Shown here: piece by piece, positions 3,745-63,630 of the stretch
Layout: the number at the start of each line of letters is the position of its first letter
Position numbering within the stretch: the stretch's first letter is position 1
NCBI GenBank assembly: GCA_964606485.1
Contig: CAZSGP010000002.1
Span: forward strand, 319,620 to 383,619
Reading direction: 5' to 3'
From: an uncultured Planctomycetia bacterium
Lineage (GTDB): Bacteria > Omnitrophota > Gorgyraeia > 2-02-FULL-51-18
DNA: 64,000 nt
The notes under the pieces: generated by a model
What the model saw: the letters and a program-made list of their open reading frames with translations, nothing else
Databases searched by the model: none
Told to the model about the DNA's origin: nothing
Made by a program: the position numbers and the translations under genes

Positions 3745-3814
3745 TTCTTTTAAACTCCTCTAAAATTTTTATGTGAAAACTTGGTTGTTAGACTATCAAG
3801 AAAAAAGCTCTTTT

Positions 3815-46255: not shown

Positions 46256-46264
46256 GCTTGCCTC

Positions 46265-46326: not shown

Positions 46327-46419
46327 TGTATTCGGACTAAATAAGTCTGAATTTGGTCGATTAAAAAAGCCAGCGGGCGTTACGCCGACTGACAGGAAAA
46401 TTATACTCTAAAATCTATG

Positions 46420-46839
46420 TTATGTCCAGGTGACTCGGTAAAGCATCCAATACACCACCACTCCCGTAACCGAAACGTACAACCAGATCGGCCAGGTGAG
46501 CCGCGCAATTCGTTTGTGCCCCTCGTAGTTACCCCGAAACGCCTTCACAAGCGTCGTAATCACAAGCGGCGGAACCAGCGCCGCGAGCACGGTGTGAGTC
46601 CCCAGAATAGACAGGTAAACGGTCCGGATAAGCCCCTGCCCCTGAAAGTGTGTTGCCCCATGGTGATAGTGGTAATAAAGATACGAGGCTAAAAATAACG
46701 TAGAAACCGCGCAGGCTCCAATCATGCAAAATACATGAGCCGTTTTATTCTGTTTCTTGATGAAATAAAAACCGAAGATCAAAAAAACCGCGCTAATAAA
46801 GTTAAGCACTGCATTGAGCGTAGGGAGATGGATTTGCAT
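46420..46839 (-). CDS. DUF420-family integral membrane protein
   Basis: 139 aa with 4 TM helices and a histidine-rich loop (YYHYHHGATHF). Confidence 0.55.
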   Translation of the reverse strand: MQIHLPTLNAVLNFISAVFLIFGFYFIKKQNKTAHVFCMIGACAVSTLFLASYLYYHYHHGATHFQGQGLIRTVYLSILGTHTVLAALVPPLVITTLVKAFRGNYEGHKRIARLTWPIWLYVSVTGVVVYWMLYRVTWT

Positions 46840-46846
46840 TCGGGTC

Positions 46847-47998: not shown

Positions 47999-48069
47999 GA
48001 AATATAAATAACATATAGATGTTATTTAATCAAGTTTTATAACATAATGCCACGGCTCAATGGGGGGGG

Positions 48070-51000
48070 CTACGCAGATGCTCCTATTGAGGCAAGCGAC
48101 GTCTTTGCAAACTCCACAAACTTCGCCCAGTCGAGCACGGCGAGCACTTTTAAGGAGAGTTTTTTGTAAAATTGTGTGTCGATAGTGGTAACTTTTTTAA
48201 TGGCCTGAAATGCCGCAGGCAAAAGCTCCGAGAACGAGTCGCTTCTTAAATTATTCCACATTTGCTTTAAAGTGTCGGTGACCGACGGCAATCGAGCAGC
48301 CGCCACAGCAAAAGTCGCACTCGCCGCAAATGGAATGGCGGATTTGCCATCACCAAAATTTTCAAAGACCACAGCACCTGCTCCATCAGCTTGGGCGAGT
48401 TTCAAGGCCGCGTCGCTGAGCTTGGAAAAATAGACCATTTCGTACTGATCGCGAGCCAGTCCCTGCAAAGCGTCGGAAGCGCCGTATTCTAAAAAGCGCT
48501 CCCCCGCTAGAGTTCCAAACTGCAACAGCACATTGCTTCCGGCCACAGCGCGAACGGATTTTATTTTAGAAGCGTAAAGCGAAAGCTCTTCGACACTCAA
48601 TTCTTTTTCGGTCACAATTCTTAAAACCACGGTGCGGTCGTTGGAGATGCCTGATTTCTGATAGAGCCTCGTGATCAAGCGCGTCACGCGTTCATTTTCG
48701 GAGTTCAGCTCTAACACTTCCGGTGACGCCATTTGAATCTGTTGACCCACGACGCGCGGTAAGACGGCAACGCTTTCGGAATTGAGTTTGTGTGCTTTTT
48801 CGCGCGTGGCTTCATCAAACGTTAACTTGCCGATGAAAACACGAGCCTCTTCCCCGACGTCACCTCGCCGGTAAAGCTCAACGGCAAGCCCTGCGTCTAC
48901 GAATTTAACTAAAGTAATTCCCGTTAAAAAGGAAAAGGGTCGAGACAATTCATCCTTCGAAAATTGCGCACCAACTTTGTCCGCCAAGCGCGCTAAGAGC
49001 AGAGTGTCAGACGCTTCGAAAGCGCTAGGCATGGATTTGATTTCGTTGGATGGAAGGCGTGCGCCGTAAATTTCTTTAAATGTCGGCACTAATTCTTCGA
49101 TATCCGGCACCTGATAAACCTTAAACGCGGTCTCGCCATTTAACGCGCCTTTATTTTTAAATTTGAGCGTGAATAATTCGGACTGCTGAGGATCTCCCCA
49201 GGCTTTCGGATAATACGGCCCGACATGATTGCCCCACTGACCCATTACAGCAAACGCTCCAGGCTTAAGTTCGCGGCCCAGCTTTTCCCGAAGAGCCGAT
49301 TGAAAACTTTCTCTCTTACCCACACCCAAACCGCTGGGTTGTGTGTAGTAAAAATAAAAAACATCAACCTGACTCCAAGACACCGCCAGTGCGTCCGTGT
49401 TTCCCAAAAATGTAAAATTGTCTCTGGGAACGAGTTGCCAAAATTTGGACTGAATCAGCACGTCCCGGGCGGCCCTCGAAATATCCGCGTCCTTTTCAAC
49501 CGCCGTAATTTTCATCCCGTACAGATAAGCCGCCACGGCAGAAACGCGGAAATCTCCGGAACCCATTTCAAAAAACTGCTTTCCTTCAAGCGACCCTTTT
49601 TCTTTTAATAATTTTTCAAACACTTCAAAAATACTCTTCAGATCCGTTGGTTTGTAGAAACTCGTGTCCGCTACCGCACCTTCCGCATCTTTGAATGCAT
49701 CACCCTGAGTTTCGTAAAACTTCTGAAGCTCTTGGAGTCTCGCCATTCGGCCCTGTTTGCCAAGGGCCAATCGCGCACCAACGCCCACCAGTTGTTGGTT
49801 GGGAGCTAAATCTGGAGCAATCTCTTTAAGAGGCGCTGTCGCTGCGAACATGGGTCGAGGGGCGAGCAGCTCTTGCATCAATTGCTCGGGAGCGGCTCCT
49901 GTCAAAATAAGACGCTCCCCCTTGGCCTCAAACGGCACGTAGGACAGCCAACCCTTTTTGATCGAGAACTCCACCTGATCTTTGGGAAGCGCTTTTAATT
50001 GAACTGTACCGAATGAAGTTCGATTTTTATTGTTGTTGAACGTATGAATCGGAACCAGAATCTCCGCTTTGGCATCTTTCGGATGGTCACGAAGAAAATC
50101 GTTCACTTGTCGGCTTCGACGATCTGTAAGATATTGATTTAGATTAAAATTCTCAACGGCCAGTGAAAGAGCCCCCGACTTCTCGTCAACTGCTAGAATT
50201 CCTAGACGCAAATCACGCACCACTTCTCTAAAATTAGCCCAAACAGACGCCTGTCCTGCTAACGGAATCCAGTAAAGTCGATATTTTTTTGCGCCAAGCG
50301 CGGCTTTGTTTAATTGGTAAAATGATCTCAAATCGGAAAGACGGGCGCCTTCCATCTCCACTCTTCTTTCTTTTGCGGGTTCTTCGGTCACCTTCTCATC
50401 AACAACCGTTGTGGGCTTTTTCTCGCTGAGTATCGCTTCCGCTGAAATACCCTCCTTAAGACTCCGATCAACTTCCCGGGGAGTTAACTGGCCAACTTGA
50501 GCATCTATTTGTTTCAAGATAGCGTCTGAACGAGTCTTTTTAATTTTTAATTCGGCGATTTCATTCGCCTTCTGCTTGATTTTTTCTTTTTCTGTGTTGG
50601 TTAATGCGAAAGCATCTTGGAGAATTTCAAGATCGCCATCGCGATTAACTTGAGTCTCTGCTCCATTCCACTGCTCAGCCAGCTCTTGTGTCATCGTTTC
50701 AAAAACCTCGCCCGTCATCGTGCCTTTAAGTTTTTCATCGCCCTCCAGCGTTAGATCTTGAGGAATGGGCGCATTCAGATTTTTGGCTACGAGCCGCTTG
50801 AGACGAAAAGCTTCGCGAGGCTCGATGTAATCGTGTTCCTTTAGGATCTCTGTCGTTATTTTTTCGATGTCTTTTTCACTAACCTCCTTAACGGCAGATG
50901 AATCGGCGGCGATACGACCGAGCGTGTTCAGATTGTCCAGCGTATTTGCGACGGAACCTTTGTTAACTTGCTCGGTAGCTTCGCTGGCTAAAGTGGCTAT

Positions 51001-54000
51001 AGGATCAAGCTCGCTAGTCAGGGAATTAAAATGTTTTTTTGCCGCGTCGTCGGCTAATGATGCAACCGCGTCGAACTTTTGGCTGACGGAGTTTTTAAGC
51101 TGTCGATCGACAACGGGCACAAATTCTTCTTTTAAGTCTTCAGGGAAGTATTTCCGGTAAACATCTTCAGGAGTAATTGAGTCGACGTATTTTTTGGCTA
51201 GGTCATAAGCGGCCTTCGCTTTTTTGGTGCGTTCAGAACCGGTTATTCGCCCGACCCAACTATCCTTAATTTCCGCCAAGGGAAGCAGAGCGACTTCATT
51301 GTTTTGGGCGACGGCGTCCACTGCCAAGTCATAAATTTCCTTATCACTAGCCCAGTGGACAGGCTCGTTGTCCTTTTCTGCTAAAAAGTCGGCCAAACGA
51401 AGAATTTCAAATCCACTGAGAGAATATTTTTTCCCATAGGGATATGCGGCTTCCAAAAACGAAATTAGTCTTGTTGAACTATTATTCATTCTACCAAGCG
51501 CTTGTATAGCGCTTTCACTTACGATTTTATATTTATCATTTAATAGCTCAATGAGCGCAAGAGCAATATTTGGTGCTACAGGGCCGATCCTGCCAAGAGC
51601 AAAAGCAGCTTCTAAACGAACAGATGGATCCTCGTCTTTTAACGCTTCAATCAGAGCAGGGATGACTTCTTTGGCGGCGGGGCCAATCTGTCCGAGGGTG
51701 ATGGCAGCATTTCTGCGGACAACCCGATCCTTGTCTTTTAATGCTTCAATCAGTGCAGGGATGGGTTCTTCGGCAGTGGGATCAATCTTACCGAGAGCAA
51801 CAATAGCTTGACTGTTACCCAGATCTTCGTCCTTTGACGCTTCAACTAGAGCGGGGATGGCTTCTTGGGCGGCGGGGCCGATTTTGCCGAGAGACTCGGC
51901 GGCGTAGTGACGGACAAGCCAATCTTTGTCTTTTAATGCTTCGATCAACGCTGGAACAACTTCTCTGGCGGCGGGGCCAATCTGTCCGAGGGCGGTGGCA
52001 GCATTTCTGCGGACAGTCGGATCTTTGTCTTTTGATGCTTCGATCAACGCTGGAATGACTTCTTTGGTAGCGGCACCTATCCTGCCGAGAGTTAGGACAT
52101 CACCGTGGCGCATAACCCCGCTCTCGTCTTTCAATCTTTCAAGGAGCGTAGGGATGGCTTCTTTGGCGGCGGGGCCGATTTTGCCGAGAGCAATGTATGC
52201 ATAACCCTCTTCATCTTTCAATGCTTCGATCAACGCTGGAATGACTTCTTTGGTAGCAGGTCCGATCTCTCCGAGAGCAATGGCGGCGCTTCTACGTAGA
52301 TGCAGATTTTTGTCTTTCAATGCTTCAATCAGAGCAGGGATGGCTTCTTGGGCAGAGGGCCCCATCTCCGCAAGGGTCCGCGCAGAACGAACGCGAATAT
52401 TTCCATCTTCATTTTTTAAATCTTCTATTAATTTTTTGATTTCATCGGATCCGGCCATCCGCGCGCCAACTTGGTTAGCTGAAATTTTTTCCAAATCACT
52501 CTGAATAGGAAACCGGACCGCATGCATCCAATAGGAAGAATCGCCTGACGGGCGAGCGGCTATATATTCAGCGAGCGCCTCTTTAAAGGAAGGCGCAATA
52601 ACTCTATGCGTCTCTTTTTTGGAGTCTACAGTAATTTCTTTTTGTTTTTTCACGACGATCACTTTTTTAAAATCGTTACCCATCACCCTGCTGGCCATAT
52701 CCAGCATCGTTTCTGGTACAAAAAATACGTCAATGGCAGAAGCGGAGACTGAGCCCTCCCTCTCCACTTCGGTCTTACCCAAGCGAACGTAAGGAAGCTT
52801 CGCATCCTTAAAAATTTGCATAACAATGATGGTGTGATTTAATCTTTCGCGCACATCCTCGTCGGTGGAATCATTTTCCACCACTACCGGTAACATTGAA
52901 AAAGGGGATCGGTCTCCGAGCGCCCGATCCAGATTTTGGTCTACGTCCTTCGATGCAGGCATAGCCACTCCATACACGCGGTCGTCATAGATCAAATCTC
53001 CACCTGCGTCCGGATAATCCAAATCCCGCGAAAATGCGAAGATCGTATCCGGTCTCTTTTCCATTATCGCCCGCCTCGATAAAATCCCATGCGTCATAAT
53101 ACTTTTCATATGTTTTTCGCGCGCTTTGTCAATTGATACATCAGCCATCCGCGCGCCGAAACCTTCGCTTTGGTCCACCCAATCCATACTAGCTCGAAAT
53201 ATCTCACCGATTTCAGGATCGTTTTTTAATTGGCTGATGACGCTCCGAGCTTTCTTAGAAACATCCGACAGGCTTGTCCGGGCGATATTGTTCAGGAAAA
53301 TGTAATTGTTCATTTGATAGTTGGTAGAAGTGTTTTTAGCTGGGAATTTGATCAATAAATGGGCATATTCCATGTCTTTTTCATCAAAAATATCGGGACT
53401 TGCGATTGATAGCGCCGGGAGAAGGTCCGACAATATTTCCTTTTCAAGGTAACTTAGATTGGCGGGCGCCTTTCTTTCGGATTGAATTCGCGCCAAGATC
53501 CGATAGGCCGCTTTTTTGTCACGGGAAAGCTGAAAATATTCATCAATTGCCTGTCTTGCAACAATCCGCTCCTTGTCTGTGCTGGCTAAATTGAAATAGG
53601 TTTCAATGCAGGTTGAATCGAGCGGATTGACGACACGCGCAACCGACTCTTGGAGTGCTGTCGTGACCGGCTCGCCCACAGCCGGCTTGCTGCTGTCTGA
53701 CAACCAAAAATAAATCTGCGCGGCGAGCAAAGGAACGGGTCCCATTAAAATGAAAACCTTCACAGCTGTAAGCGCATAAAGCCCCGTAAATAGAAGTGTT
53801 GTTCTTAGGAACAGTGTGAAGGCAATATCCTCAAGGCGGGTCTCTTTGCTGGTCGCCATCCCTGCCTGTCCGGCAGACAAACGCGCGCCGGCTAGAACTC
53901 TATTTAATTCATGCGGAAATTGTATGGGTGCATGCAAATGAACCGTCTCGTTTGTCGGTTCGATGTGAATAGTGTTTGGGGCTATAACCGAGAATTTAAC

Positions 54001-57000
54001 CCCCTCTCTAAAAATTCCTTTTTCAGCCCAATCTTGAAGCGCTTTGCTTACAAGCTCGGTGTCTTTAGTAGGATCTTTAAGGAGACTGAGATAGATTTTG
54101 TCTGATCCGAGTTGGATATACGGGCCCTTTAATGAGTCTTCGCCTTTGGTGATTAAATTAGCATTTTGAGTGGGCGTGCCGGAAAGGCGCGCGCCGGAAT
54201 TGAGCGCCGACAAATCCACATTCACCATGCGGTTTATAGCCGCTCCGACCGGGCGCAGTTTGGCTTCGATGACCACGGGCCTTGGGTAATCTTCGGAGCC
54301 GCTCGCTGGAAGCCACATGAGATCAATTTGGCCATCTAATTCAAATCCGTCCGGGACACCGATTGCTTTAAGCCTTTGGGACAAATAACGAACCTCGGCC
54401 TTAACCTGTTCATCCATCTGCTTGGAAAAACCGTCTTTTTTGCCTTCCGAAATCCCTGCCGCTTCATAAAGCGGCGCGTAAATAGTGGGCCAATAATCTT
54501 TCTGGGTCTGAGCTTCTCCGGTAATAAATGTAAAATACGACGAGCTCCCGACACGCGAATGCCAACCGCTCAAATTTTTATCCCCGTCCCTTTCTTTGAG
54601 CAGCACCACGTCGCCGCCGACCGTAAATTGATAGCGCGTCCTTAGCTCCAGCGCTTTACCGTGATAACGCAAAACGGGTGACAATGTCTCAGCCACTCCG
54701 TAATTCTCTCCTATAAACAATTCCCAAAATTCCCGCAATCGGCTAGCCGCATCTTCTCTACTAGCGTCAATAACCAATTGCGTGATTTCTTCAGACGGCT
54801 TGTCTAGGACTGGCACCTTACGGAAAGAAAAATGAGCCTTTACGCGCTGCAATTGATCATCAGACGCGATCGAGCGGTAATCGGCAAACGTGATCACAAA
54901 CGCTCCTTCCTGATTTTTTTCAATCATAAATATGCCATTTCCCATGCTCATCGAATTCGCTTTAACCACGATTGGCAGAGCGCGCGCGCCGCTCATAATT
55001 TCATCGAGCAGTTGGCGCGGTGTTCTGCTTCCTCCAGACGGAATCAGCTCAAGAACAGGCTGTTCCTCAAGAAGGCGGATGTGAAAGGGCTCCGGACCCT
55101 GCCATGATCCATTTACAAAGCGCTTTCCAAAAACCACGTATTCCGGTTGAATCATCGGACCCCCATCCAACAGGCGACGCATTTCGTATTTTCTCGAAAA
55201 CGTCTGAATTAGATTGTCGAATGGCACTTCACTAGCCGACAAGCGGGCACCCGATGATAATGCATCGGTCGGCCTCTGAACTAAAATCTGTCCCGGCTCG
55301 GTTAACCAATGCGTACTAGAGGACTTATTGGAGTCGGTGAAATAAGGCAACGCTAGACTCATATTCTTCGAAATAATCCCAGCGAGTGTTTTCACCTCTG
55401 AGACACTGTTTAGCAATACCTCTTTTTTAAATGTTCTATGAGAAAGAAGATGGGAAATTTTACCGATGCGAGGCTGATTGACGCCGGCCAACCATATTTT
55501 TAATTTTTGGTCCGGCTCTACCAGTATGGTGTAATAACTATCCCTGTAATTAGACTGGACGTAAATTAAGGTCCCTGGTATTTCATCGAATAAATTTAGA
55601 AATTCAACCTCATCCGGCTTCCGGGACGTGTCAAACTTAGGCGCCGCCTCGCTCGAAGAACCTGGAGCCCATGGTCCCGCAGACATCTCGGGATTATGAA
55701 ATTCATAAAACACTTGCCTTAGATATAACTGGCTCATAGCGACAAGCGGTACAGCAGCCGCCAGAACATCAATCCCTACGATGATAGCCGCAAACAATGG
55801 CATACCAAAATAAATCAATCCCAATGAGGTTATTCCGCCAAAAATAATACCCGCACCCCAATAGGCCAAGCGATTTTCATCTATTGAAATACCCAGAAGA
55901 ACATGGGTGGGTATTTCAGCCATCCTCGCCCCGTCCGGCAGGCGGTCTTTAGGAATCTCGTTACGATTTAGAAGATTTAGCTCTCTCTGGACTGCCTGAA
56001 CCGCTTCTTCCAAAAATTTTTTAAATTGATCTCCTGAATAATCTTTCTGTATTGCCTCTACCATTTTCTTCGACTCTTGGGCTAACGCTTTGGCCTTAGC
56101 CCAGTCCTTTGCTTCTTTCCTCACTGCATTGCGGTCCCCTTGAATTTTTTCATAAGCTCGATCCAACTTGGATGAAAAACGGCTATCCTCAATCAGCTCG
56201 GCTTCGGCGATATCTCCCTTAATCGCCGCAAATATTTGAAGCGCCATCCACATTTTTAAAACGACGCGGCCCCGAATGAATTGCCCCGGCCTCCAGGAAA
56301 CTAGGTATGCGTCCGCCATTTTTTCGGCTGTGACCAAGTCCATGGCTTCGATCCCGCGCTTGTTCAGCGCTCTGTACAAATTCAGAAAAACAATCTTGTG
56401 TTTCAAATCCGGTATGGATTCGACACTTTCAACAAGTTCCTTCGACGTTTTTTCATCCATCTCGGTCTTTATGGACTTTAGATTTTCGATCAACGATTCT
56501 AATTTCAAGACGTTCTCTTGGCTTAATTCATCAAAAAGCACCTGTTTTAATTTTGGGTTGGCGCTACTCCACTTTAAAACCGTTTTCATGGTCTCGGGTT
56601 CAACGTTTTCAAGCAGCGCCGCCGGCCCCCCACGCTGGCGCACCGTTTTCAAATCACCCGATTCATTGTAGGCAATCGCGGTGACAAAATTGGGGACGGT
56701 TTTTGAATCAAATAGACCTTTAAAATAGCGGTAGTACACCACCTCGTTCTCTTCCAAAACTTTTTGGTAGTTCTGAGCGACCGGACTCGTCAAGACAGTC
56801 TTTAAGGGGCTTGGCTCGGCGGGCGCCATCGCCTGGGAAGCCTCGGGCGACTGAGAAGACTCGACGGATTCTTGGTAATGGATGGAGGCTTGGGTCAATA
56901 AATGCGAGGTAGAAATTGGTAAAAGCGCTAAAAATAAACCGATCGTGAAAGGAAGCATTCGTCTAAGCAATTGATTCTGAGAGTTTGCCGCAATGATAAT

Positions 57001-60000
57001 TCCCAAATAAACGAGCGCTGTGCAAAGCACTCCGGGAATTCCTAAAGCCGTGTACGCTGAAAGCGCTCCGACAAGCATGCTCGCGGAGGCAGCGCTAAAG
57101 TTTGCCGGGCTAAGAGATGCGAATCGTGCACCGGCGGCCTTCAGAAAATTTATTCTTTTAGCCATTTCTGCCGACCGGCCAAAATCTGCCGCCAATCGCG
57201 GCGCAGTCACTGAGAGCTCCGGATCGTTTTTAAAATATTCTGAAATGTATGAATAAATATCGGCAATAGCATTTCTAATTTTTTGCTGTACTTGCTCTGG
57301 GGTGGCTTCGGCTGCATCCCGGCTCCACAGCTGCGCGACGGCACGAAGGCTTTTCTCATCAACAAGGTCCGTTTGTCCGCTTGCAACTTTCAGCGCCCCC
57401 CTAAACTTCAGCAGAAGGGCGTATTCCTCAATAACCTTCTGGCTTTTTGGAAGTCTTTCCAAAACCTCAAAAGAGCTCGAAAAAGAACGCAACTCAGGAT
57501 GCCGGCTTTTTTCATGCCAAACCAGAAAATGAATGGCGCGGATCACGGCCAATTTTATATTCAATTCTTTTGCGCCCGAAATGACCGGGGTTTGAACACT
57601 GTCTAATTCCTCCAAAAGTGCCTTCTGATGATCACTTCGAGAACTTCCATAGAGATTGTTAGCAACAATCCGTTGAATCAGCACCTGGTCATACTGGTCC
57701 CTGCTACCCGCCACAAAATAAATATCCCGAAACGTAGTCGGCGTGTTGCTGGGAACCTCTATATCGGCATCAATGGCTGGTTCGTATCTTTTTTCAAAAG
57801 GCGCCCATATTTCTTTTGCGCCACCCAGCTCTTCCAGAGATAGAAAATATTTATCCCCCAAACTCTCTTTCATTCCTTCATCCACATCCAGATCCGGCAG
57901 CTTGTATTCATCCACCCACTGCTCAAGCTGAATTTTAATCGCTTCGTGTATTTTTTTTGCATTTTCTTTATTTGCGGCGCTGACCGGAATAACCTTAAAA
58001 TCGATGTCCGAAAAATAAACCAACTCGTCTTTCCGGGCCAAGCTTCCGTAGCTAGCCACCACAAAATCATTCAAATCGACGCCGATCTTTTGCGACACGG
58101 CCTCCGCAGCTAAACGAACGGTTTGATTGAGCCAGCTCGTCATTGAAGTCGAAGCTTTTATCTGCCGCTCCCTATTTATTTCAGGAGCACTCGCTTCAAT
58201 CTCCACATCCCGTTTTAAATCTTTGTAAACTTGAACATGTTGCGCCATTGGATCTTCCGCCAACCGCGCCCCGCTCACGGGCATAAACTTCTCCAAAGCA
58301 GACTTATAAACAAACTCCGGCATCTCACCATCAATCTTGAGCAGTACGATTTCACCACTGGCCACCGCCGCCTTAAAATCGGTTTCATTTGAAATTTTCC
58401 ACCCCATGTTTTGCTCGATGCCAGGGATGAGAACATTTTTTGCTACGTGCCTTCCTTTTCCGGGAGGAATTTTAGAAAGCGCCTCTTTTGTGGGGAAAAT
58501 TCTAAAATGATATTTTTTTCCAAATCTAGCCAGCACATCAAATTCCATCAAGTCTGAATCTGTCTCCACCGTCGCCAGTGTAATTACAGCGCCCTGATCA
58601 AAGCTTTGGCCCTGATGCAATGCGCCGTTCACACCGCTAATCTTAATTTTCCATTGTCCTTCTTCAAAAAAAATCTCCGCATGCTTTCTGGAGATTGTTG
58701 AGCCTGGTATTGATATCTCATTCTCCGGATTCCGCCCAACGAAGTATCTTTTTTCAGGTGTAAGCGTTATAGGCGATCCGCTTGTCGTTGTGACTACTAA
58801 ATTTTTTCCGTCCAAGTGATAACCAAACTTGCCGTCCCCCAAAAACATCTCTTGGGTGGTAGGCTCGGTGGAAGTAGCGGCGGGCGCGCCAAATCGTTTC
58901 CGAAACTCCGCAATCACCGGTATCCTGTTGAGATATTTTTCAGAAACATCGACGTAATTAGTATTGGAGGGGTGCGATTGGCCTGCGTATTCTCTCGCTT
59001 GTTTTCGATACTCATATGCGGGAGTCGTAAAGGACCCACCCTTGACCCATTTTGCCCTTAAACCTAAAACTCCAATTTTACCGGTGGTTTCAATGCTACC
59101 AATCCACGATCTTCCATCTTTATCCGTCATAAAAATAAAACGTAGATTTTTATTGAGCGATCTAAAAACACGCGCGGTGACCATTCCATAAAGATTTGTT
59201 TGCATCGTAGTCTGATCTTTTTTGGGATCGAAACCCTCAAAATTAGGAGCATCCCCCGGGTCCGTAAACCGAACATCTTCGGGCCTCGGTTTTTTCGTAG
59301 AGTCCACCATCCCGAAACGGTCCATCACCAAAGAACCTTCCTTTAACCGCTGCGCGTTCCTGTCGATGGCCATTTTATAAGTCCCCTGTAAATCATAATT
59401 ATTCTGATAATCCCGTGTCGTTCCCGCAAAAATCAACTCTTGAACACGCTTATCTCTTATCTCAACAATTTTCTTTTGCTCGGAAATTTTGTTGAGCGCT
59501 ACTTGAATTTCAAAAGGAAGTGTAATGCTGTCTTCTCCAAAACCTTTGTCATACCAATCAATCTCTCCAAGCCCATCCAAGTAAACACTAGGCAAGTATC
59601 TCCACAATGCTTGGGAATTGCTCAAATAATAAGTTCTCGCCACGTATCTGTTTCCCGCTTTTACATAGGCAATCGCAGCCAGTCGTTTATCTTTCATTTC
59701 AAATAAATTCGATGCAAACAAAAGCACCTGCCCGTCCACATTAACCCGATGCTTGGGAATCATCCCTTCGCGTCTTAGCAAGTCCGTGGTCAAAAATTCA
59801 CCCTTAAAGGACCGTCCGTGAATATCCGTTTTAGCTAAAATCGCAAGCCCTTCTTCAGCGCCAATTTCGACAGGAGCATCGGCCTGGAGCGAAATTTCCT
59901 CATTAACCCCTGCCGGAGAAGCCAAAGAAACGTTAAACCTATCGATCATTTTTTCAACGATATTTTTGATGGCTTCCTTGGCTTGCGCAGGAATGGAGTT

Positions 60001-63000
60001 ATCGAGTGCATAGCTAAAAGCACCATCACCGCTTTCCGCGGAAAGATTACGAATGAGGTGAAGCCGATACTGACCCGGTTTTAGTGCGCTCGCTTTGCCA
60101 ATCGATAAAATATTTCCGTCAATCCCAATAATGACCTCTACGATAATTTTTTTGTACGTATTGCTCGACACAAGAGCGCTTTCGAAATCGTCGGATTTTA
60201 GTTTTTTGACGTTCGTCTGAAGAATGAGCTCGTCATCGTCCTTTAGATTGGCTCTCAGGATCGAAAGCACTTTTGTTTCTCCGGAGTCCATGTCTTCATT
60301 GTCTTGCGTGCGGCGTGAAGCGGCGGCTATTTCGATGAGCGGCAAGTACAAATCTCGAGGCATCCGGTAGGAGGCCACTAATTCATAAAACTCGCCGAGT
60401 TTTCCCGCCTTTGAAGCGTCCTTTAAATCGTCGGATTGTCTCAAGAAAAATTCGATTTCGGACATTTCGGTTAAATTCATTTTTCCGCTAAGATCTTCGA
60501 CTGCTTTTTTAAACAAAGATTGGTCGGCCAGCCATCCCATATCCACAAACTGAAGCGGCGGCACTTTCGTGCCGTTGGTTGATTCCAAATCTTGCACAAC
60601 TACCATCGGCAACCCTTGAGAGGCGTCCAAATGAATTTCAAAATGACGCGTTGAAATTCCAGGATCAGAGAGCTCGCTCGCATCCCGTCCTGCAATAAAT
60701 GGTTTGCCCGTCATAAGTTTCTGGAATGAGGGATCCAGTTCACGCGAATCACCGACTTGCGCATATTTTCTTAAAATAAATTCATCCCCTCTTTTTTCTA
60801 TCGCAAAATCCGTATTGCCTGCCCGCAGCAATGGCCTCGCTCCATCTTCGGTCATTGTCATAAAATAGGGTACGTTCGCGGTGAGGGGGGTTGTGAATAA
60901 ATCACTTGGCGCAAGGGAGGCTAAACGCGAACCGCTTGGAGGAGCGACCTCATCCATTCTCTGCAAAACCAGCTTAATCTGACTCTTTATGCTTTCGGGA
61001 TAACGCCTAAATGAGGGGCTTGTTACAACCGCCTGAACAGATTGCTTGAGCTTTGAAAGATCTTCCTTGGAAAGATTTCTTTCCTCTAGAAATTTATCAA
61101 AAGCTACTGAGATTCCGTTAAAATTTTTAGCTTCTTCCGCCCCAAATCCTGGAAACATCTTTCGCATATCCAGATTTATTTTTGAAATCAAGCTGTTAAA
61201 ATCAAGATATTGCGGCAATCCTAAGTCGAGATACTGAACCTTTGAGACTTCATTCTTTGACTTCACAACAAAATTATCGGGCTTCAAGTCGCCGATCGTG
61301 ATTCCCGTATCTGCATATCTATTGGCTTGGCTTATTAAAAGCCAGGCTCTCACAATAGTTTCGACCACGCTGGCGTATTTATCCCGCGTTATCCCGGTAA
61401 CTGCGCCGATCTCCACGCCGTTTTTCAAATCAACATACTCCCCAACCGTGAACCCCGTATATTTAACGGGCTTCTCGCCGATACCCATCACCAAGGGAAT
61501 GTAGCCATACACCTCGATGGCCACACCGTTTAACTCATTGTATTTCCTGAAAAGCTGCACTTCCTTTTTTGCAGTATCCTCACCGCCATTTTTTATAAAT
61601 CGGATTCCAATAACATGCGATTCGAGCACTCCATCTTTGTTTGAGGCTTCAATTTCCATTCTTAGAACGTATTTATAATTTCCCTCGCCCCCATAGCTAA
61701 TTTTTTTAATTTTTACTTCTTTTAAATTCTGAAGATTCGCCATTTCCAAAATTTTGTCCATATTTGAATAAATGTAGGGGACTGTCGCTTCATAATCCTG
61801 CGGATCAATCCCTTCCAAAATAGAGACCGCCATCCTCGCCCCCGCCGCCTTAAAATCATCCACCACGGCACTCACCTCTTGCGGCGTTGCCCCCGCTTCA
61901 CTTAAAAGCTCCGTAAGCGTACTAGGTCTATTTTCCGCAGCTGCGAGTCGTGCACCGGGGGCCGTCAACACAGGCCGAAGGTCATTATTTTTCTGCCTAC
62001 TTTTAAGCAAATCCTTCTCCAAAGCACTTAAAGGTTTATCCGCATGAGACTCGCCCTGCACCATCTCCACCTTTTTAATTTCTGCGTGCATGGGTTCAAG
62101 CAGCAGCTTTTCATATTTCTTTTGATTCGTTTCTGCCGTCACCACCGGCGTCAGCACCGCGATCGAATACCCCTTTTCGGAAAGGAGTTTCTTTAAATGC
62201 GGCGTGTGATAACCACCCGCGATCATAAACGCGGCATTCGCATTATTTTCAGCGAGCGCTTTTTCGGCATTTTGGAGAAACACGAAATCTCTCTTCGACA
62301 CCGTGTCATAAAAAGCCTCGAGCGACTTACGGCCTTCATCCAAAACCGGTTCAAGCACCAAAAGATCTTCGAAATATCCAAGCTCCGCGAGTTTTCGATT
62401 GATAAATGCTAAATAAGATAATGTTGAGAAATCGGGCTCATTGGCTTTAAACGTTTCAAAATCTTTCGTCGTCATTTGAATTTGGTAGGCTGTTTTGAGG
62501 AGTTTCAGGTAACGGTCGATGGAGCGAATAAGCCTAGTATCACTGGATTGCTTCGCTTCGCTCGCAATGACAGATAAGTAAACTTCGTCTTCGATGGCTT
62601 CCATTTCGCCTAGCAGAACATCCAGATCAATCGCAGAAAAAAACTGCAAGTATTCCGCGTATTTTTCAAGATGCGGAAACTTTTCAAGATTCACTCCCTT
62701 TACCTTTGCCATATTCAATGTGTTTAAAATTGGGCCAAGCCGCGAAAGCTTGTTGTCATTCCCGCGCAAGCGGGAATCAAGTTGATCCCCGCTTAAAGAT
62801 TGCGGGGATGACCGAAGCTCTTCCAACAATGCGGCCAGCTCGAGATTGGAGAGATTGAAATCGATTAATTTTTCCTGAAGCGAAAGCTCAACAAGTTTTT
62901 CAGCATTTGGGTACTTTTCGAGTTCTATTTTATTCTGAGAAGCCATCTCGAGCAGCGCTTTGAATTTTTTCTCAAACGAACTCTCCGCCCCATAAAGCTT

Positions 63001-63630
63001 CTCAAATTGGAGCAGTTCTTTGGGGTAGAGCTTCGACTTGATCTGATCTTCCGCACGCTGAATAGCGTGGAGATAATCGAGTATCTTTTCCCGGCGAGTG
63101 GCCAAATCGCCGTAACTTTGAACACTTTTTAAATAGAGCTCCTGATCCTCAAGTCCCATAATTTTCATTGGATGCTCGCTTGTTAAATTTAAATATTCCT
63201 CCCCCGAAATTTTTCCAAGCAGTAAATATTTTTTAGCAATCCGTTTCCAAACAGCGGGTGTCGCGATTTTTTTGAGTGCTGTCAGCGAGCAGTCATCGAT
63301 ACCACCCTCCGACAACACTAGCTTGATTCCATACTTTGACATCAGAAAATCAAGTGCGCCCGAGAGATTCTGTTGTCCCGAAAAATTGGCATGCGCGTCT
63401 TCGATTTGGATAATCAACTTTCCCCCGGACGCTTTAGAAACCTCTTTGAGCGAACAAAATTCGGTGGGTACGTCTAGCTGCTGTGGCTCCGCTAAAAGCG
63501 AGGTAAGTAGCGGCGGTGAAACAGGCGTCGCCCCAATTTCAGTCCCGGCAAAACCAAGCTCTTGCAAAAAGAAAGCGAAAGCTAAAACTAAGCTGACAAG
63601 GCGAACCGTTAGGCACTGTCTGTTTTTCAT
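48070..63630 (-). CDS. Giant multidomain protein (5186 aa): signal peptide, Tiki/TraB-like domain, kinase-like domain, two FHA domains, Pol-beta nucleotidyltransferase, ATP-grasp-like segment, three TM blocks, HEAT-repeat array, SAM-MTase-like segment
   Basis: A single uninterrupted 15.56-kb ORF in a roughly 50% GC genome. Several independent domain signatures were recognised by eye (detailed in the sub-features). Confidence 0.75.
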   Translation of the reverse strand: MKNRQCLTVRLVSLVLAFAFFLQELGFAGTEIGATPVSPPLLTSLLAEPQQLDVPTEFCSLKEVSKASGGKLIIQIEDAHANFSGQQNLSGALDFLMSKYGIKLVLSEGGIDDCSLTALKKIATPAVWKRIAKKYLLLGKISGEEYLNLTSEHPMKIMGLEDQELYLKSVQSYGDLATRREKILDYLHAIQRAEDQIKSKLYPKELLQFEKLYGAESSFEKKFKALLEMASQNKIELEKYPNAEKLVELSLQEKLIDFNLSNLELAALLEELRSSPQSLSGDQLDSRLRGNDNKLSRLGPILNTLNMAKVKGVNLEKFPHLEKYAEYLQFFSAIDLDVLLGEMEAIEDEVYLSVIASEAKQSSDTRLIRSIDRYLKLLKTAYQIQMTTKDFETFKANEPDFSTLSYLAFINRKLAELGYFEDLLVLEPVLDEGRKSLEAFYDTVSKRDFVFLQNAEKALAENNANAAFMIAGGYHTPHLKKLLSEKGYSIAVLTPVVTAETNQKKYEKLLLEPMHAEIKKVEMVQGESHADKPLSALEKDLLKSRQKNNDLRPVLTAPGARLAAAENRPSTLTELLSEAGATPQEVSAVVDDFKAAGARMAVSILEGIDPQDYEATVPYIYSNMDKILEMANLQNLKEVKIKKISYGGEGNYKYVLRMEIEASNKDGVLESHVIGIRFIKNGGEDTAKKEVQLFRKYNELNGVAIEVYGYIPLVMGIGEKPVKYTGFTVGEYVDLKNGVEIGAVTGITRDKYASVVETIVRAWLLISQANRYADTGITIGDLKPDNFVVKSKNEVSKVQYLDLGLPQYLDFNSLISKINLDMRKMFPGFGAEEAKNFNGISVAFDKFLEERNLSKEDLSKLKQSVQAVVTSPSFRRYPESIKSQIKLVLQRMDEVAPPSGSRLASLAPSDLFTTPLTANVPYFMTMTEDGARPLLRAGNTDFAIEKRGDEFILRKYAQVGDSRELDPSFQKLMTGKPFIAGRDASELSDPGISTRHFEIHLDASQGLPMVVVQDLESTNGTKVPPLQFVDMGWLADQSLFKKAVEDLSGKMNLTEMSEIEFFLRQSDDLKDASKAGKLGEFYELVASYRMPRDLYLPLIEIAAASRRTQDNEDMDSGETKVLSILRANLKDDDELILQTNVKKLKSDDFESALVSSNTYKKIIVEVIIGIDGNILSIGKASALKPGQYRLHLIRNLSAESGDGAFSYALDNSIPAQAKEAIKNIVEKMIDRFNVSLASPAGVNEEISLQADAPVEIGAEEGLAILAKTDIHGRSFKGEFLTTDLLRREGMIPKHRVNVDGQVLLFASNLFEMKDKRLAAIAYVKAGNRYVARTYYLSNSQALWRYLPSVYLDGLGEIDWYDKGFGEDSITLPFEIQVALNKISEQKKIVEIRDKRVQELIFAGTTRDYQNNYDLQGTYKMAIDRNAQRLKEGSLVMDRFGMVDSTKKPRPEDVRFTDPGDAPNFEGFDPKKDQTTMQTNLYGMVTARVFRSLNKNLRFIFMTDKDGRSWIGSIETTGKIGVLGLRAKWVKGGSFTTPAYEYRKQAREYAGQSHPSNTNYVDVSEKYLNRIPVIAEFRKRFGAPAATSTEPTTQEMFLGDGKFGYHLDGKNLVVTTTSGSPITLTPEKRYFVGRNPENEISIPGSTISRKHAEIFFEEGQWKIKISGVNGALHQGQSFDQGAVITLATVETDSDLMEFDVLARFGKKYHFRIFPTKEALSKIPPGKGRHVAKNVLIPGIEQNMGWKISNETDFKAAVASGEIVLLKIDGEMPEFVYKSALEKFMPVSGARLAEDPMAQHVQVYKDLKRDVEIEASAPEINRERQIKASTSMTSWLNQTVRLAAEAVSQKIGVDLNDFVVASYGSLARKDELVYFSDIDFKVIPVSAANKENAKKIHEAIKIQLEQWVDEYKLPDLDVDEGMKESLGDKYFLSLEELGGAKEIWAPFEKRYEPAIDADIEVPSNTPTTFRDIYFVAGSRDQYDQVLIQRIVANNLYGSSRSDHQKALLEELDSVQTPVISGAKELNIKLAVIRAIHFLVWHEKSRHPELRSFSSSFEVLERLPKSQKVIEEYALLLKFRGALKVASGQTDLVDEKSLRAVAQLWSRDAAEATPEQVQQKIRNAIADIYSYISEYFKNDPELSVTAPRLAADFGRSAEMAKRINFLKAAGARFASLSPANFSAASASMLVGALSAYTALGIPGVLCTALVYLGIIIAANSQNQLLRRMLPFTIGLFLALLPISTSHLLTQASIHYQESVESSQSPEASQAMAPAEPSPLKTVLTSPVAQNYQKVLEENEVVYYRYFKGLFDSKTVPNFVTAIAYNESGDLKTVRQRGGPAALLENVEPETMKTVLKWSSANPKLKQVLFDELSQENVLKLESLIENLKSIKTEMDEKTSKELVESVESIPDLKHKIVFLNLYRALNKRGIEAMDLVTAEKMADAYLVSWRPGQFIRGRVVLKMWMALQIFAAIKGDIAEAELIEDSRFSSKLDRAYEKIQGDRNAVRKEAKDWAKAKALAQESKKMVEAIQKDYSGDQFKKFLEEAVQAVQRELNLLNRNEIPKDRLPDGARMAEIPTHVLLGISIDENRLAYWGAGIIFGGITSLGLIYFGMPLFAAIIVGIDVLAAAVPLVAMSQLYLRQVFYEFHNPEMSAGPWAPGSSSEAAPKFDTSRKPDEVEFLNLFDEIPGTLIYVQSNYRDSYYTILVEPDQKLKIWLAGVNQPRIGKISHLLSHRTFKKEVLLNSVSEVKTLAGIISKNMSLALPYFTDSNKSSSTHWLTEPGQILVQRPTDALSSGARLSASEVPFDNLIQTFSRKYEMRRLLDGGPMIQPEYVVFGKRFVNGSWQGPEPFHIRLLEEQPVLELIPSGGSRTPRQLLDEIMSGARALPIVVKANSMSMGNGIFMIEKNQEGAFVITFADYRSIASDDQLQRVKAHFSFRKVPVLDKPSEEITQLVIDASREDAASRLREFWELFIGENYGVAETLSPVLRYHGKALELRTRYQFTVGGDVVLLKERDGDKNLSGWHSRVGSSSYFTFITGEAQTQKDYWPTIYAPLYEAAGISEGKKDGFSKQMDEQVKAEVRYLSQRLKAIGVPDGFELDGQIDLMWLPASGSEDYPRPVVIEAKLRPVGAAINRMVNVDLSALNSGARLSGTPTQNANLITKGEDSLKGPYIQLGSDKIYLSLLKDPTKDTELVSKALQDWAEKGIFREGVKFSVIAPNTIHIEPTNETVHLHAPIQFPHELNRVLAGARLSAGQAGMATSKETRLEDIAFTLFLRTTLLFTGLYALTAVKVFILMGPVPLLAAQIYFWLSDSSKPAVGEPVTTALQESVARVVNPLDSTCIETYFNLASTDKERIVARQAIDEYFQLSRDKKAAYRILARIQSERKAPANLSYLEKEILSDLLPALSIASPDIFDEKDMEYAHLLIKFPAKNTSTNYQMNNYIFLNNIARTSLSDVSKKARSVISQLKNDPEIGEIFRASMDWVDQSEGFGARMADVSIDKAREKHMKSIMTHGILSRRAIMEKRPDTIFAFSRDLDYPDAGGDLIYDDRVYGVAMPASKDVDQNLDRALGDRSPFSMLPVVVENDSTDEDVRERLNHTIIVMQIFKDAKLPYVRLGKTEVEREGSVSASAIDVFFVPETMLDMASRVMGNDFKKVIVVKKQKEITVDSKKETHRVIAPSFKEALAEYIAARPSGDSSYWMHAVRFPIQSDLEKISANQVGARMAGSDEIKKLIEDLKNEDGNIRVRSARTLAEMGPSAQEAIPALIEALKDKNLHLRRSAAIALGEIGPATKEVIPALIEALKDEEGYAYIALGKIGPAAKEAIPTLLERLKDESGVMRHGDVLTLGRIGAATKEVIPALIEASKDKDPTVRRNAATALGQIGPAAREVVPALIEALKDKDWLVRHYAAESLGKIGPAAQEAIPALVEASKDEDLGNSQAIVALGKIDPTAEEPIPALIEALKDKDRVVRRNAAITLGQIGPAAKEVIPALIEALKDEDPSVRLEAAFALGRIGPVAPNIALALIELLNDKYKIVSESAIQALGRMNNSSTRLISFLEAAYPYGKKYSLSGFEILRLADFLAEKDNEPVHWASDKEIYDLAVDAVAQNNEVALLPLAEIKDSWVGRITGSERTKKAKAAYDLAKKYVDSITPEDVYRKYFPEDLKEEFVPVVDRQLKNSVSQKFDAVASLADDAAKKHFNSLTSELDPIATLASEATEQVNKGSVANTLDNLNTLGRIAADSSAVKEVSEKDIEKITTEILKEHDYIEPREAFRLKRLVAKNLNAPIPQDLTLEGDEKLKGTMTGEVFETMTQELAEQWNGAETQVNRDGDLEILQDAFALTNTEKEKIKQKANEIAELKIKKTRSDAILKQIDAQVGQLTPREVDRSLKEGISAEAILSEKKPTTVVDEKVTEEPAKERRVEMEGARLSDLRSFYQLNKAALGAKKYRLYWIPLAGQASVWANFREVVRDLRLGILAVDEKSGALSLAVENFNLNQYLTDRRSRQVNDFLRDHPKDAKAEILVPIHTFNNNKNRTSFGTVQLKALPKDQVEFSIKKGWLSYVPFEAKGERLILTGAAPEQLMQELLAPRPMFAATAPLKEIAPDLAPNQQLVGVGARLALGKQGRMARLQELQKFYETQGDAFKDAEGAVADTSFYKPTDLKSIFEVFEKLLKEKGSLEGKQFFEMGSGDFRVSAVAAYLYGMKITAVEKDADISRAARDVLIQSKFWQLVPRDNFTFLGNTDALAVSWSQVDVFYFYYTQPSGLGVGKRESFQSALREKLGRELKPGAFAVMGQWGNHVGPYYPKAWGDPQQSELFTLKFKNKGALNGETAFKVYQVPDIEELVPTFKEIYGARLPSNEIKSMPSAFEASDTLLLARLADKVGAQFSKDELSRPFSFLTGITLVKFVDAGLAVELYRRGDVGEEARVFIGKLTFDEATREKAHKLNSESVAVLPRVVGQQIQMASPEVLELNSENERVTRLITRLYQKSGISNDRTVVLRIVTEKELSVEELSLYASKIKSVRAVAGSNVLLQFGTLAGERFLEYGASDALQGLARDQYEMVYFSKLSDAALKLAQADGAGAVVFENFGDGKSAIPFAASATFAVAAARLPSVTDTLKQMWNNLRSDSFSELLPAAFQAIKKVTTIDTQFYKKLSLKVLAVLDWAKFVEFAKTSLASIGASA
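49230..49593 (-). other. SAM-dependent methyltransferase-like segment (motif I)
   Basis: FFEMGSGDFRVSAVAAYLYGMKITAVEKD resembles MTase motif I (E/D-x-G-x-G) with an acidic residue at the end of beta2. Tentative. Confidence 0.3.
51486..52467 (-). repeat. About ten tandem HEAT (PBS-lyase-type) repeats, with a 93-bp periodic near-identical DNA repeat
   Basis: The 31-aa unit AIPALIEALKDKD..VRR.AA.ALG.IGPAAKE is repeated about 10 times. At DNA level, blocks such as GTCTTTTAA(C/T)GCTTCAATCAG.GCAGGGATG recur with a 93-bp period. Confidence 0.85.
53694..53823 (-). other. Internal hydrophobic (TM) block 3
   Basis: IAFTLFLRTTLLFTGLYALTAVKVFILMGPVPLLAAQIYFWL. Confidence 0.55.
54210..55023 (-). other. 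ATP-grasp-like segment of the giant protein
   Basis: ALPIVVKANSMSMGNGIFMIE (compare vvKP..gs.G.Gv) and later PVVIEAKLRP (compare viEvN..P). Tentative. Confidence 0.3.
55725..55869 (-). other. Internal hydrophobic (TM) block 2
   Basis: LAYWGAGIIFGGITSLGLIYFGMPLFAAIIVGIDVLAAAVPLVAM. Confidence 0.55.
56910..57078 (-). other. Internal hydrophobic (TM) block 1 of the giant protein
   Basis: MLVGALSAYTALGIPGVLCTALVYLGIIIAA...MLPFTIGLFLALLPI, two predicted helices. Confidence 0.55.
57180..58143 (-). other. Pol-beta superfamily nucleotidyltransferase domain (GlnE/GlnD/DUF294-like) plus helical region
   Basis: ASYGSLARKDELVYFSDIDFKV carries the GS...D.D NTase signature. Confidence 0.6.
58560..58779 (-). 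other. FHA domain 2 of the giant protein
   Basis: YFVGRNPENEISIPGSTISRKHAEIFFEEGQWKIKISGVNGALHQG. Confidence 0.55.
60540..60738 (-). other. FHA domain 1 of the giant protein
   Basis: FIAGRDASELSDPGISTRHFEIHLD...VVVQDLESTNGTKV matches the FHA consensus (GR..D..l.d..vSR.Ha.i...........DlgStNGT.vN). Confidence 0.7.
61140..61713 (-). other. Protein-kinase-like domain (non-RD; catalytic D/K/N retained) in the giant protein
   Basis: Gly-rich loop ISYGGEGNYKYVL, catalytic-loop-like IGDLKPDNFVV (compare HRDLKPEN), and DLG in place of DFG (YLDLGLP). Confidence 0.5.
62546..62574. repeat. Single arm of the family-2 REP-like element (GTCATTGCGAGCGAAGCGAAGCAATCC), in-frame in the giant gene
   Basis: It matches the arm of the 13788..13862 palindrome and encodes VIASEAKQS within the giant protein. 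Confidence 0.6.
62749..62808. repeat. Family-1 double-hairpin REP-like element inserted in-frame inside the giant gene (copy 3)
   Basis: GTCATTCCCGCGCAAGCGGGAATCAAGTTGATCCCCGCTTAAAGATTGCGGGGATGAC. In the gene frame it encodes SSPQSLSGDQLDSRLRGND; the opposite strand gives SFPRKRESS. Confidence 0.8.
63544..63630 (-). other. Predicted N-terminal signal peptide of the giant protein
   Basis: MKNRQCLTVRLVSLVLAFAFFLQELGFAG: basic n-region, hydrophobic core and an A-x-A-like end. Confidence 0.6.

Follow-up and report, generated by a model that had tools for sequence, protein, structure and literature searches.

Giant open reading frames (ORFs) that are poorly annotated, rich in transmembrane (TM) segments and composed of several enzyme-like parts are a published hallmark of the Omnitrophota (West-Roberts 2023, 10.1101/2023.11.21.568195; Seymour 2023, PMC10066038; 2026 preprint, 10.64898/2026.06.07.730766). 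Such ORFs fill a large share of the small Omnitrophota genomes and are a signature of the phylum. According to West-Roberts et al. (10.1101/2023.11.21.568195), their cleavage points are unknown, so that structure prediction for each product is impossible, and in the 2026 preprint (10.64898/2026.06.07.730766) internal signal-peptide calls are discarded as artefacts. A TraB/TIKI-like head, a conserved small-small-Ala tail and junction motifs are not mentioned in these three reports, and no paper in the searchable literature joins Omnitrophota with the term polyprotein. Here we describe a protein of 5,186 residues, encoded by a single 15.56-kb ORF in a 64,000-nucleotide stretch of DNA (hereafter the window; NCBI GenBank assembly GCA_964606485.1, contig CAZSGP010000002.1, positions 319,620 to 383,619, labelled as an uncultured Planctomycetia bacterium), in which a conserved head and a conserved tail enclose unrelated cargo modules separated by a recurrent five-residue junction peptide. 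The source is an Omnitrophota chromosome, and both the protein family and its organising principle were previously undescribed.

With the Archaeovorins and Omnitrophota giants the window protein shares the phylum, a mosaic of enzyme-like domains, HEAT arrays, TM segments, an N-terminal signal or anchor, a mostly unannotatable and sequence-unique content, and suspected processing. The size thresholds set for those proteins (>30,000 aa, genes >90,000 bp, or at least 10,000 aa) lie above its length, and of the domains carried by Archaeovorins (GT, GH, NUDIX, C39/S8 peptidase, SecA-DEAD) none was detected when its tiles and modules were searched with Pfam; a weak methyltransferase-like signal came from a PDB search. 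In kind, it is a smaller relative of the published giants.

Partial likenesses exist outside the phylum. In MARTX toxins conserved ends flank interchangeable, unrelated effector modules, and a protease within the toxin sets these free by cleaving the linkers; the MARTX cut sites are not known to follow a strict five-residue motif. The window protein has neither RTX repeats nor a cysteine protease domain in the same Pfam searches, no evidence of type I secretion and an unrelated phylum of origin, and the likeness is one of analogy, not of membership. Viral polyproteins (picorna-like viruses, potyviruses, alphaviruses) likewise derive many independent proteins from one ORF, with short lineage-specific cleavage motifs at every junction which co-vary with a cognate protease encoded in the same chain; the window gene, by contrast, lies on a cellular chromosome among housekeeping neighbours, belongs to a multi-copy family with hypervariable cargo, and the cleavage of its product is a proposal. 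CdiA and Rhs polymorphic toxins combine a conserved delivery part with hypervariable cargo and a short boundary peptide, the demarcation motifs being VENN in CdiA and PxxxxDPxGL in Rhs, whereas the window family has many modules in place of one C-terminal toxin, no evident immunity genes, and cargo of enzyme-like or regulatory kind that is not recognisably toxic. The window protein is a member of none of these three groups.

Gene and coding sequence

The ORF (window 48070–63630, minus strand) starts with ATG and comprises 5,186 codons and a stop codon with zero internal stops, a stop-free run with a chance probability of ~1e-108 at a stop frequency of 3/64. An identical 5,186-aa sequence was found as a database protein (P0034) encoded on a 401,265-bp NCBI contig, and a Logan contig of run SRR12487046 matched window positions 45460–49998 exactly, thereby covering the final 1,929 nt of the ORF together with its neighbours. 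GC content and base composition of the ORF were uniform with the flanking chromosome, which is of ordinary housekeeping content (GltB, MetH, ThyX, sulfite reductase, the SUF system, NifU and NadA), and no long internal DNA repeats were detected in the ORF beyond its HEAT array. Because of the identical database protein, the contig match, the uniform composition and the ordinary surroundings, the gene is confirmed as real and native, as the original prediction from the sequence had claimed for a single 15.56-kb gene; likewise, it encodes neither an adhesin nor a non-ribosomal peptide or polyketide synthase. An assembly chimera, a collapsed repeat or separate genes joined by sequencing errors can be dismissed almost entirely. 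Nothing was found in favour of such an artefact, the sole in-frame stop being that of one paralogue (P0013), where it splits a longer frame, and the head/tail architecture was seen again at >150 loci from many studies.

Junction peptide

A short peptide that delimits the modules of the protein had been overlooked in the original prediction. The pattern G-A-R-[L/M/F]-[A/S] was present in 13 copies against 0.27 expected, with a maximum of three in 2,000 shuffles, and it was absent from the remaining 18,098 aa encoded by long ORFs of the window. One further, probable variant junction was GSRLA at aa 900. Since the codons at the motif vary freely (GGT/GGG/GGC, GCA/GCG/GCC, CGN and AGG, CTN/TTG/ATG/TTC), the constraint acts on the peptide and not on the DNA. 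A repeat element, a recombination site, and an internal start or ribosome-binding site were rejected as DNA-level causes on this ground, and because CTN Leu codons cannot initiate translation. The similar GARAL at aa 2881 was rejected as a junction; it sits within the conserved ATP-grasp-like core (LP.V.KPN) of one of the modules, module G.

The same peptide recurred in the relatives of the protein described below. In 72 family ORFs (154,357 aa) its density was 1.61 per 1000 aa, compared with 0.28 in other ORFs at the same loci. Across 257 family sites conservation was limited to [A/S]-G-A-R-[L>M>F]-[A>S>T] and the flanks were unconserved, the ten residues before the motif being Pro-enriched, aromatic-depleted and linker-like. 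The head is always followed by the first motif, which falls within a predicted disordered stretch, and the median length of internal modules in the family is 268 aa. Pfam searches of four GAR-rich family proteins (15,436 aa) detected only an XRE-type helix-turn-helix (HTH), a DnaJ J-domain and a GT2 domain, none of which straddles a motif, and the HTH begins 6 aa and the J-domain 24 aa past one. In free-standing proteins, HTH and J-domains are normally N-terminal.

In the window protein the HEAT array starts immediately past the junction motif at aa 3722, and all three internal TM blocks start 18–31 aa beyond a motif, which has a chance of ~7e-4 for this protein by our own arithmetic, calculated from the share of its residues that lie no more than 31 aa beyond a motif. 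A general rule that every junction precedes a signal anchor was rejected: it holds for these three TM blocks, but family-wide the TM segments after motifs are only weakly enriched (14 seen, 8.3 ± 2.8 expected). Nor was a signal-peptidase-type A-x-A logic adopted, the −3 position being small in only about 40% of the sites. Between the first two junctions lies a mini-module of 38 aa (window 61843–61950, minus strand, aa 561–596: RLAAAENRPSTLTELLSEAGATPQEVSAVVDDFKAAGA), and a similar short, semi-conserved peptide between two close motifs after the head was seen in many members, e.g. L004, L006, L017, L022 and P0017.

One variant of the motif prevails within a protein and across the paralogues of one genome, and lineages differ. 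GARL and GARM were counted 27 : 0 in four paralogues of DATJEK01, 28 : 0 in CAYJXB01 and 16 : 0 in CAYODQ01, whereas GARM dominated over GARL by 15 : 3 in CAYSKO01 and by 11 : 0 in P0068; locus L068 had GAKLA, and L064, L042 and L036 had AARLA. The heterogeneity of L versus M over 14 genomes gave a chi-square of 103 (p = 5e-16). Because the variant is genome-specific while the cargo of the paralogues is unrelated and the flanks are unconserved, the simplest explanation would be that all junctions co-evolve with one trans-acting, genome-encoded factor which recognises the peptide.

Boundaries of the same module could be compared between lineages. An exhaustive HMMER search with aa 2796–3723, a region of four motif-bounded segments, against 1.84 billion representatives returned 63 relatives, all aligning to query positions ~5–340 only, that is, to module G between its two motifs. 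The other three segments had no relatives among these representatives, and a metagenome scan for close orthologues of the region found none. The relatives of module G were either stand-alone proteins of 330–490 aa or segments of other giants. The suggested ATP-grasp-like nature of the module was modestly supported by its family profile, which matched TTLL7 (E 0.007) and another ATP-grasp protein (E 0.86); no Pfam match was obtained in 20 members.

GAR[LM] motifs bracket the G-like module at 0–17 aa from its projected ends in P0052 (15 motifs) and P0068 (11 motifs, with head). P0066 (NCBI MDP3921239.1, Omnitrophota) instead carries 14 copies of [RK]SELR, with motifs at 625 and 994 for a projected module at 628–1000, and P0045 carries 10 copies, the closest at 291 for a module projected at 310–674. 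In P0038 and P0039 (with head), which have five and seven copies of GFGA, the end of a motif coincides exactly with the projected module start; the homology blocks of these two proteins break at GFGA, and a two-module insert in P0039 has GFGA on both sides. The motif at homologous boundaries therefore differs between lineages.

The RSELR-type giant P0066, of 7,989 aa, is annotated merely as 'Fic family protein'. An ATP-grasp-like module is also present in the giants P0050 (7,388 aa, NCBI MFC1548485.1, 'protein kinase', Omnitrophota), P0092, P0059, P0089, P0094 and P0048, which mostly end in xAA or xSA. In these six, 4-mer enrichment showed no obvious recurrent junction motif, and their junctions, if any, are therefore more degenerate.

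Family and cargo turnover

A search with aa 1–900 returned 33 homologues, every named one from Candidatus Omnitrophota/Omnitrophica. Only the first ~520 residues were shared, and were followed by a methyltransferase, PF02636, a low-molecular-weight (LMW) phosphatase, a phosphoenolpyruvate (PEP)-utilising enzyme or a kinase. Homologues and genomic relatives aligned over aa ~10–520 with 34–57% identity, and the head profile identified 151 relatives among one genome per species, with at least eight paralogues in single metagenome-assembled genomes (MAGs). For the family analyses 79 loci were kept, from MAGs labelled Omnitrophota or bearing evidently generic labels. Carrier MAGs are often labelled 'uncultured Planctomycetia', 'Candidatus Eisenbacteria' or 'uncultured proteobacterium', taxonomies that are likely generic or wrong.

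The family is large, multi-copy and restricted to Omnitrophota, with a head, variable junction-bounded cargo, and a tail ending in small-small-Ala. The window protein has the hydrophobic helix with a ~480-aa head, the recurrent junction peptide and the small-small-Ala tail, and is one of this large family, not an isolated oddity. An all-versus-all comparison of 334 family modules gave only eight clusters, the largest of which, the head aside, held three modules. The same module was found at differing positions in different proteins, and the cargo of paralogues was unrelated.

Six other loci share with the window gene the arrangement next to a divergent HldD-like epimerase, and are thus positional orthologues. 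Only one of them, L010, is complete (3,745 aa, 14 motifs). It is 47% identical to the window protein in the head and 23% in the tail module, whose alignment has the final junction motif of each protein as its starting point, and has no other similarity to it: the 2,800–4,300 aa between head and tail are without detectable likeness. This turnover fits a fast-evolving repertoire of, for instance, host- or prey-directed effectors. A second positional group adjoins the NADH dehydrogenase (nuo) operon (11–14 loci, including L013, L021, L025, L028 and L040), and the family therefore has several conserved chromosomal positions. No conserved protease or transporter was found as a neighbour of the family genes, recurrent neighbours being of housekeeping type (the nuo operon and the HldD-like epimerase).

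These comparisons bear on the earlier interpretation of the protein as a secreted or membrane-embedded, eukaryote-like signalling hub or effector. In a hub, the kinase, FHA, HEAT, nucleotidyltransferase and methyltransferase parts would act together. Both FHA domains and the HEAT array were confirmed, a kinase-like catalytic loop, an N-terminal anchor and TM blocks are present, and yet relatives with the same head and tail, the positional orthologue included, bear completely different cargo, which elsewhere in the family includes a methyltransferase, a PEP-utilising enzyme, an LMW phosphatase, HTH, DnaJ and GT2 domains. Consequently, the combination is not conserved as a unit, and a joint function of the ensemble is very improbable; kinase, FHA and HEAT are one draw from a hypervariable repertoire. 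The other part of the interpretation, a secreted or membrane-embedded effector, is possible and compatible with the processing proposed below.

Cargo turnover could also mean that the motif chiefly marks recombination points for the exchange of cargo, with or without proteolysis. At a syntenic locus, head and tail are indeed conserved while the cargo enclosed by them is replaced, insertions and deletions of modules lie exactly at motifs, and a given module changes its position between proteins. However, the motif spans 15 nt with many synonymous codons (Arg CGN and AGG; Leu CTN and TTG) between unconserved flanks, and hence offers no DNA homology for recombination, and a genome-specific peptide variant would be left unexplained without a reader at the protein level. 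Exchange at the motifs may be a consequence of modularity and not the function of the motif, and we regard demarcation as an improbable primary role.

Head and tail modules

An N-terminal signal peptide and a Tiki/TraB-like domain had been suggested for the start of the protein. The hydrophobic helix is present at aa 7–25; for the domain behind it the fold and the active-site residues agree, and no sequence model does. The head has the alpha/beta core with a parallel beta-sheet that is characteristic of the TIKI/TraB/EreA/ChaN fold, split by a ~300-aa helical insertion (aa 163–461). D78, H80, E108 and H475 are each at least 90% conserved in the family, Asp standing for the first Glu of the reference signature, which is E3900-x-H3902, E3930 and H4030 in RRSP, with H85 and E113 in Bcr135 (PMC6254334); equivalence was assigned by sequence spacing, not by residue-level superposition. 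At E <= 1 the head had no Pfam or NCBIfam match (TraB, Tiki or Erythro_esteras), and no PDB profile match was obtained. From the described TIKI, TraB, PrgY, erythromycin esterase and ChaN proteins it differs by the insertion, the Asp and the missing model match, and its activity is predicted only. Fold and residue spacing support a TIKI-type fold with an intact catalytic signature and a predicted hydrolase function.

After the N-terminal helix most family members have Q-E-[LIV]-[AS]-Y-[AS]-A-P, the window protein having QELGFAGT (window 63540–63580, minus strand, ~aa 18–30). A Pro directly behind an A-x-A-like site would block signal peptidase I, and the conserved Pro therefore points to an anchor that stays uncleaved or to sorting by a dedicated step.

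At the other end, the last ~210 aa of the tail are conserved in a subset of the family, always ending at the C-terminus. This domain, of 120–210 aa in different members and always at the very C-terminus, matched P0007, L044, L010 and others. The C-terminal residues were [AS]A in 16 of the 25 complete family ORFs and in 12 of 474 ordinary ORFs, and about a third of the tails had [GA]-A-R-[LM]-[AS] within their final 20 residues, at ~10x the control rate. A word-indexed search with aa 4430–5186 returned nothing, partly due to E-value scaling, whereas family-internal profile searches do find the tail domain. AlphaFold2 on the tail module with four sequences gave no confident fold (predicted local distance difference test score, pLDDT, of 41). 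Among the stand-alone homologues of module G (P0036, P0037, P0067, P0072, P0073, P0085 and P0087; 300–490 aa), several have ...AA as their last residues. The role of the small-small-Ala C-terminus as a signal, for sorting or as a degron like the ...LAA of ssrA, may thus be more general and not specific to giants.

Probable processing at the junctions

On balance, the junction motif is probably a proteolytic processing site, and the ORF would then encode a bacterial polyprotein that is cut at its junctions. The junction peptide would be the recognition site of a genome-specific protease, which would cut the chain into modules, with the TIKI-like head as the candidate processing enzyme; membrane modules would insert by means of the hydrophobic segments directly after their junctions, and soluble enzymes would be released. 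This would account for modules that resemble complete proteins, some with hydrophobic N-terminal segments of their own. A cut after G-A would leave ends like the natural ...[AS]-A of the tail, and the R-to-K variant would suit an enzyme specific for basic residues, although neither point is decisive.

Alternatively, the peptide may be bound and not cut, the protein acting as a single uncleaved, membrane-anchored multi-enzyme chain. Candidates for its genome-specific partner would be chaperones, factors for export or insertion, and HEAT/TPR-type scaffolds that organise the modules. The published view of these proteins is that of giant surface or membrane proteins, the motif lies in linker-like sequence, HEAT repeats are common in such proteins, and cleavage is deduced from sequence. 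An uncleaved chain is nevertheless unlikely, if still to be taken seriously: the modules resemble free-standing proteins in their sizes, in the N-terminal-type domains at their starts, in the stand-alone homologues of module G and in their hydrophobic N-termini; an invariant five-residue element co-varying by genome is typical of polyprotein protease sites and unlike passive linkers; and unrelated motifs, GFGA and RSELR, play the same role in other lineages.

Several points weigh against cleavage at the junctions. It is a prediction from sequence, and a conserved linker peptide could serve binding instead. Some long members (L036, L057, L066) have few or no recognisable motifs, and the family-wide enrichment of TM segments after motifs is weak, as noted above. 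With regard to the head, no TraB or Tiki sequence model matches, and Foldseek returned no significant match (best E 0.14). By the positive-inside rule the head is placed outside the membrane, and many cargo modules are of cytoplasmic type (HTH, J-domain, kinase, methyltransferase), which makes processing in cis topologically awkward. In P0066 and P0045, the giants of RSELR type, a TIKI-like head was not detected, so that a head in cis is dispensable and cutting could fall to another protease.

Besides esterases, the TIKI superfamily contains endopeptidases with sequence specificity (Tiki and RRSP), and because of the latter the head is the best candidate for the processing enzyme. RRSP is itself a cargo domain of MARTX toxins and a TIKI-superfamily endopeptidase (PMC6254334). 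That the head is the processing protease is proposed tentatively, as the weakest step of the argument. Equally tentative is an extension to the phylum, in which the Omnitrophota giants would be cellular polyproteins serving as operon substitutes, with dozens of independent enzymes, regulators and membrane proteins made in a single translated chain and released by a genome-specific protease reading GAR[LM]A, GAKLA, GFGA or RSELR; here the protease would be the TIKI-like head at the start of each chain, and the cargo would form a rapidly evolving effector repertoire of an epibiotic or predatory lifestyle.

The junction peptides provide explicit candidate cleavage points or module boundaries for the window protein and many others, and k-mer enrichment offers a simple way to derive, for any giant ORF, the motif used by its lineage. 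With these boundaries the ORFs can be divided into modules for structure prediction, whether and where the giants are processed becomes testable by proteomics, and the TIKI-like head offers a candidate enzyme. Should the junctions prove to be cleaved, the family would represent an extensive case of a cellular organism arranging its genes as polyproteins, with hypervariable cargo and a conserved head and tail.

Cargo modules and neighbouring genes

The features of the window protein are listed in Table 1. The predicted mosaic of unrelated modules was borne out, most of the suggested domains holding at least weakly, and the architecture corresponds to none described in Pfam, NCBIfam or PADLOC; on the modules PADLOC gave nothing meaningful, with one marginal pAgo match (E 0.004). 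The suggested FHA domains scored above the Pfam cut-off of 20.7 bits (58.2 bits for the two copies, 26.5 for copy 1 alone), and the roughly ten HEAT repeats and the three internal TM blocks, which belong to small membrane modules, were found as predicted. Several further cargo modules are orphans. For the non-RD kinase-like segment B the evidence was weak: GDLKPDN and DLG motifs are present, and all 11 PDB matches, at the catalytic loop and DxG, were kinases at sub-threshold values (E 0.13–2.2), with no Pfam Pkinase match. For the methyltransferase-like module M the signal was very weak: an RNA methyltransferase in the PDB aligned with it at motif I (E 0.74), and Pfam gave no match. Of the proposed GS..D.D nucleotidyltransferase only a G-S...D-x-D pattern remains, with no match in Pfam, NCBIfam or PDB. 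Module D had no relevant match in these three databases, and a word-indexed search with aa 1789–3147 found no relatives.

Table 1. Features of the 5,186-aa protein, in order from the N-terminus, with positions in the window.
Feature	Window position	Strand	Residues (aa)	Remarks
N-terminal hydrophobic helix	63556..63612	-	7-25	after K2/R4/R10; predicted membrane anchor or uncleaved signal; conserved family-wide
Head module	62083..63510	-	41-516	predicted TIKI/TraB/EreA/ChaN-fold alpha/beta core
D78-A-H80	63391..63399	-	78-80	counterpart of E-x-H in the TIKI 2His/2Glu set; at least 90% conserved
E108	63307..63309	-	108	28 residues past H80, same spacing as RRSP H3902/E3930 and Bcr135 H85/E113
G472-G-Y-H475	62206..62217	-	472-475	invariant GxxH with second catalytic His; search pattern behind the 151 relatives
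Disordered linker (predicted)	61957..62082	-	517-558	leads into first junction; pLDDT below 50
Junction 1, GARLA	61942..61956	-	559	
Segment B, kinase-like, non-RD	60931..61950	-	561-900	IGDLKPDN ... YLDLG; 38-aa mini-module included
Junction 2, GARMA	61828..61842	-	597	closes the 38-aa mini-module
Probable variant junction, GSRLA	60919..60933	-	900	
FHA domain 1	60562..60672	-	~987-1023	Pfam PF00498, 26.5 bits
FHA domain 2	58594..58746	-	1629-1679	Pfam PF00498, E 1e-15
Junction, GARLA	58258..58272	-	1787	
Module D, orphan	57127..58266	-	1789-2168	no match in any search
Junction, GARFA	57118..57132	-	2167	
TM block 1	56914..57078	-	2185-2239	begins 18 aa past junction
Junction, GARMA	55918..55932	-	2567	
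TM block 2	55741..55848	-	2595-2630	begins 28 aa past junction
Junction, GARLS	55237..55251	-	2794	
Module G, ATP-grasp-like	54190..55245	-	2796-3147	sole cargo module with detectable relatives
Junction, GARLS	54181..54195	-	3146	
Junction, GARLS	53875..53889	-	3248	
TM block 3	53707..53796	-	3279-3308	begins 31 aa past junction
Junction, GARMA	53143..53157	-	3492	
Junction, GARMA	52453..52467	-	3722	
HEAT-repeat array	51481..52461	-	3724-4050	about 10 repeats; Pfam HEAT_2, E 4e-71
Junction, GARLS	50335..50349	-	4428	
Junction, GARLA	49765..49779	-	4618	
Module M, possible class-I S-adenosylmethionine (SAM) methyltransferase	49060..49773	-	4620-4857	EMGSGD motif
Last junction, GARLP	49051..49065	-	4856	tail-module alignments to relatives begin here
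C-terminal tail module	48073..49059	-	4858-5186	ends ...SLASIGASA

The paralogue P0013 (L081:3001-10254, from SRR12487046, the sample to which the window also belongs) is 1,417 aa long, has the head and GAR motifs and ends 10 residues past a GARLA. Its stop is in frame with the next ORF of 1,986 aa (...GARLAGPIVESSKQ-stop-PVAGSIV...VTLERL...), both together forming one frame of ~3,430 aa, and could be a nonsense mutation, a sequencing error, a readthrough site or a natural split.

No tRNA or tmRNA genes were found in the window. Two ORFs of its housekeeping region, at 11064–12707 (minus strand, 547 aa) and 18606–19382 (minus strand, 258 aa), had no Pfam match at E <= 1e-5. As predicted, the giant gene is flanked upstream by a divergent epimerase gene of lipopolysaccharide (LPS)-core, HldD-like type. 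The AAA_14/DUF4143 ATPase gene that had been noted beside it is also present (window 46847–47998, minus strand), with nothing to tie it functionally to the giant; since it is not among the recurrent neighbours of the family genes, it is probably unrelated. The ATPase has a PADLOC match to PDC-S01 (E 4e-41), a candidate defence system made up of one gene.

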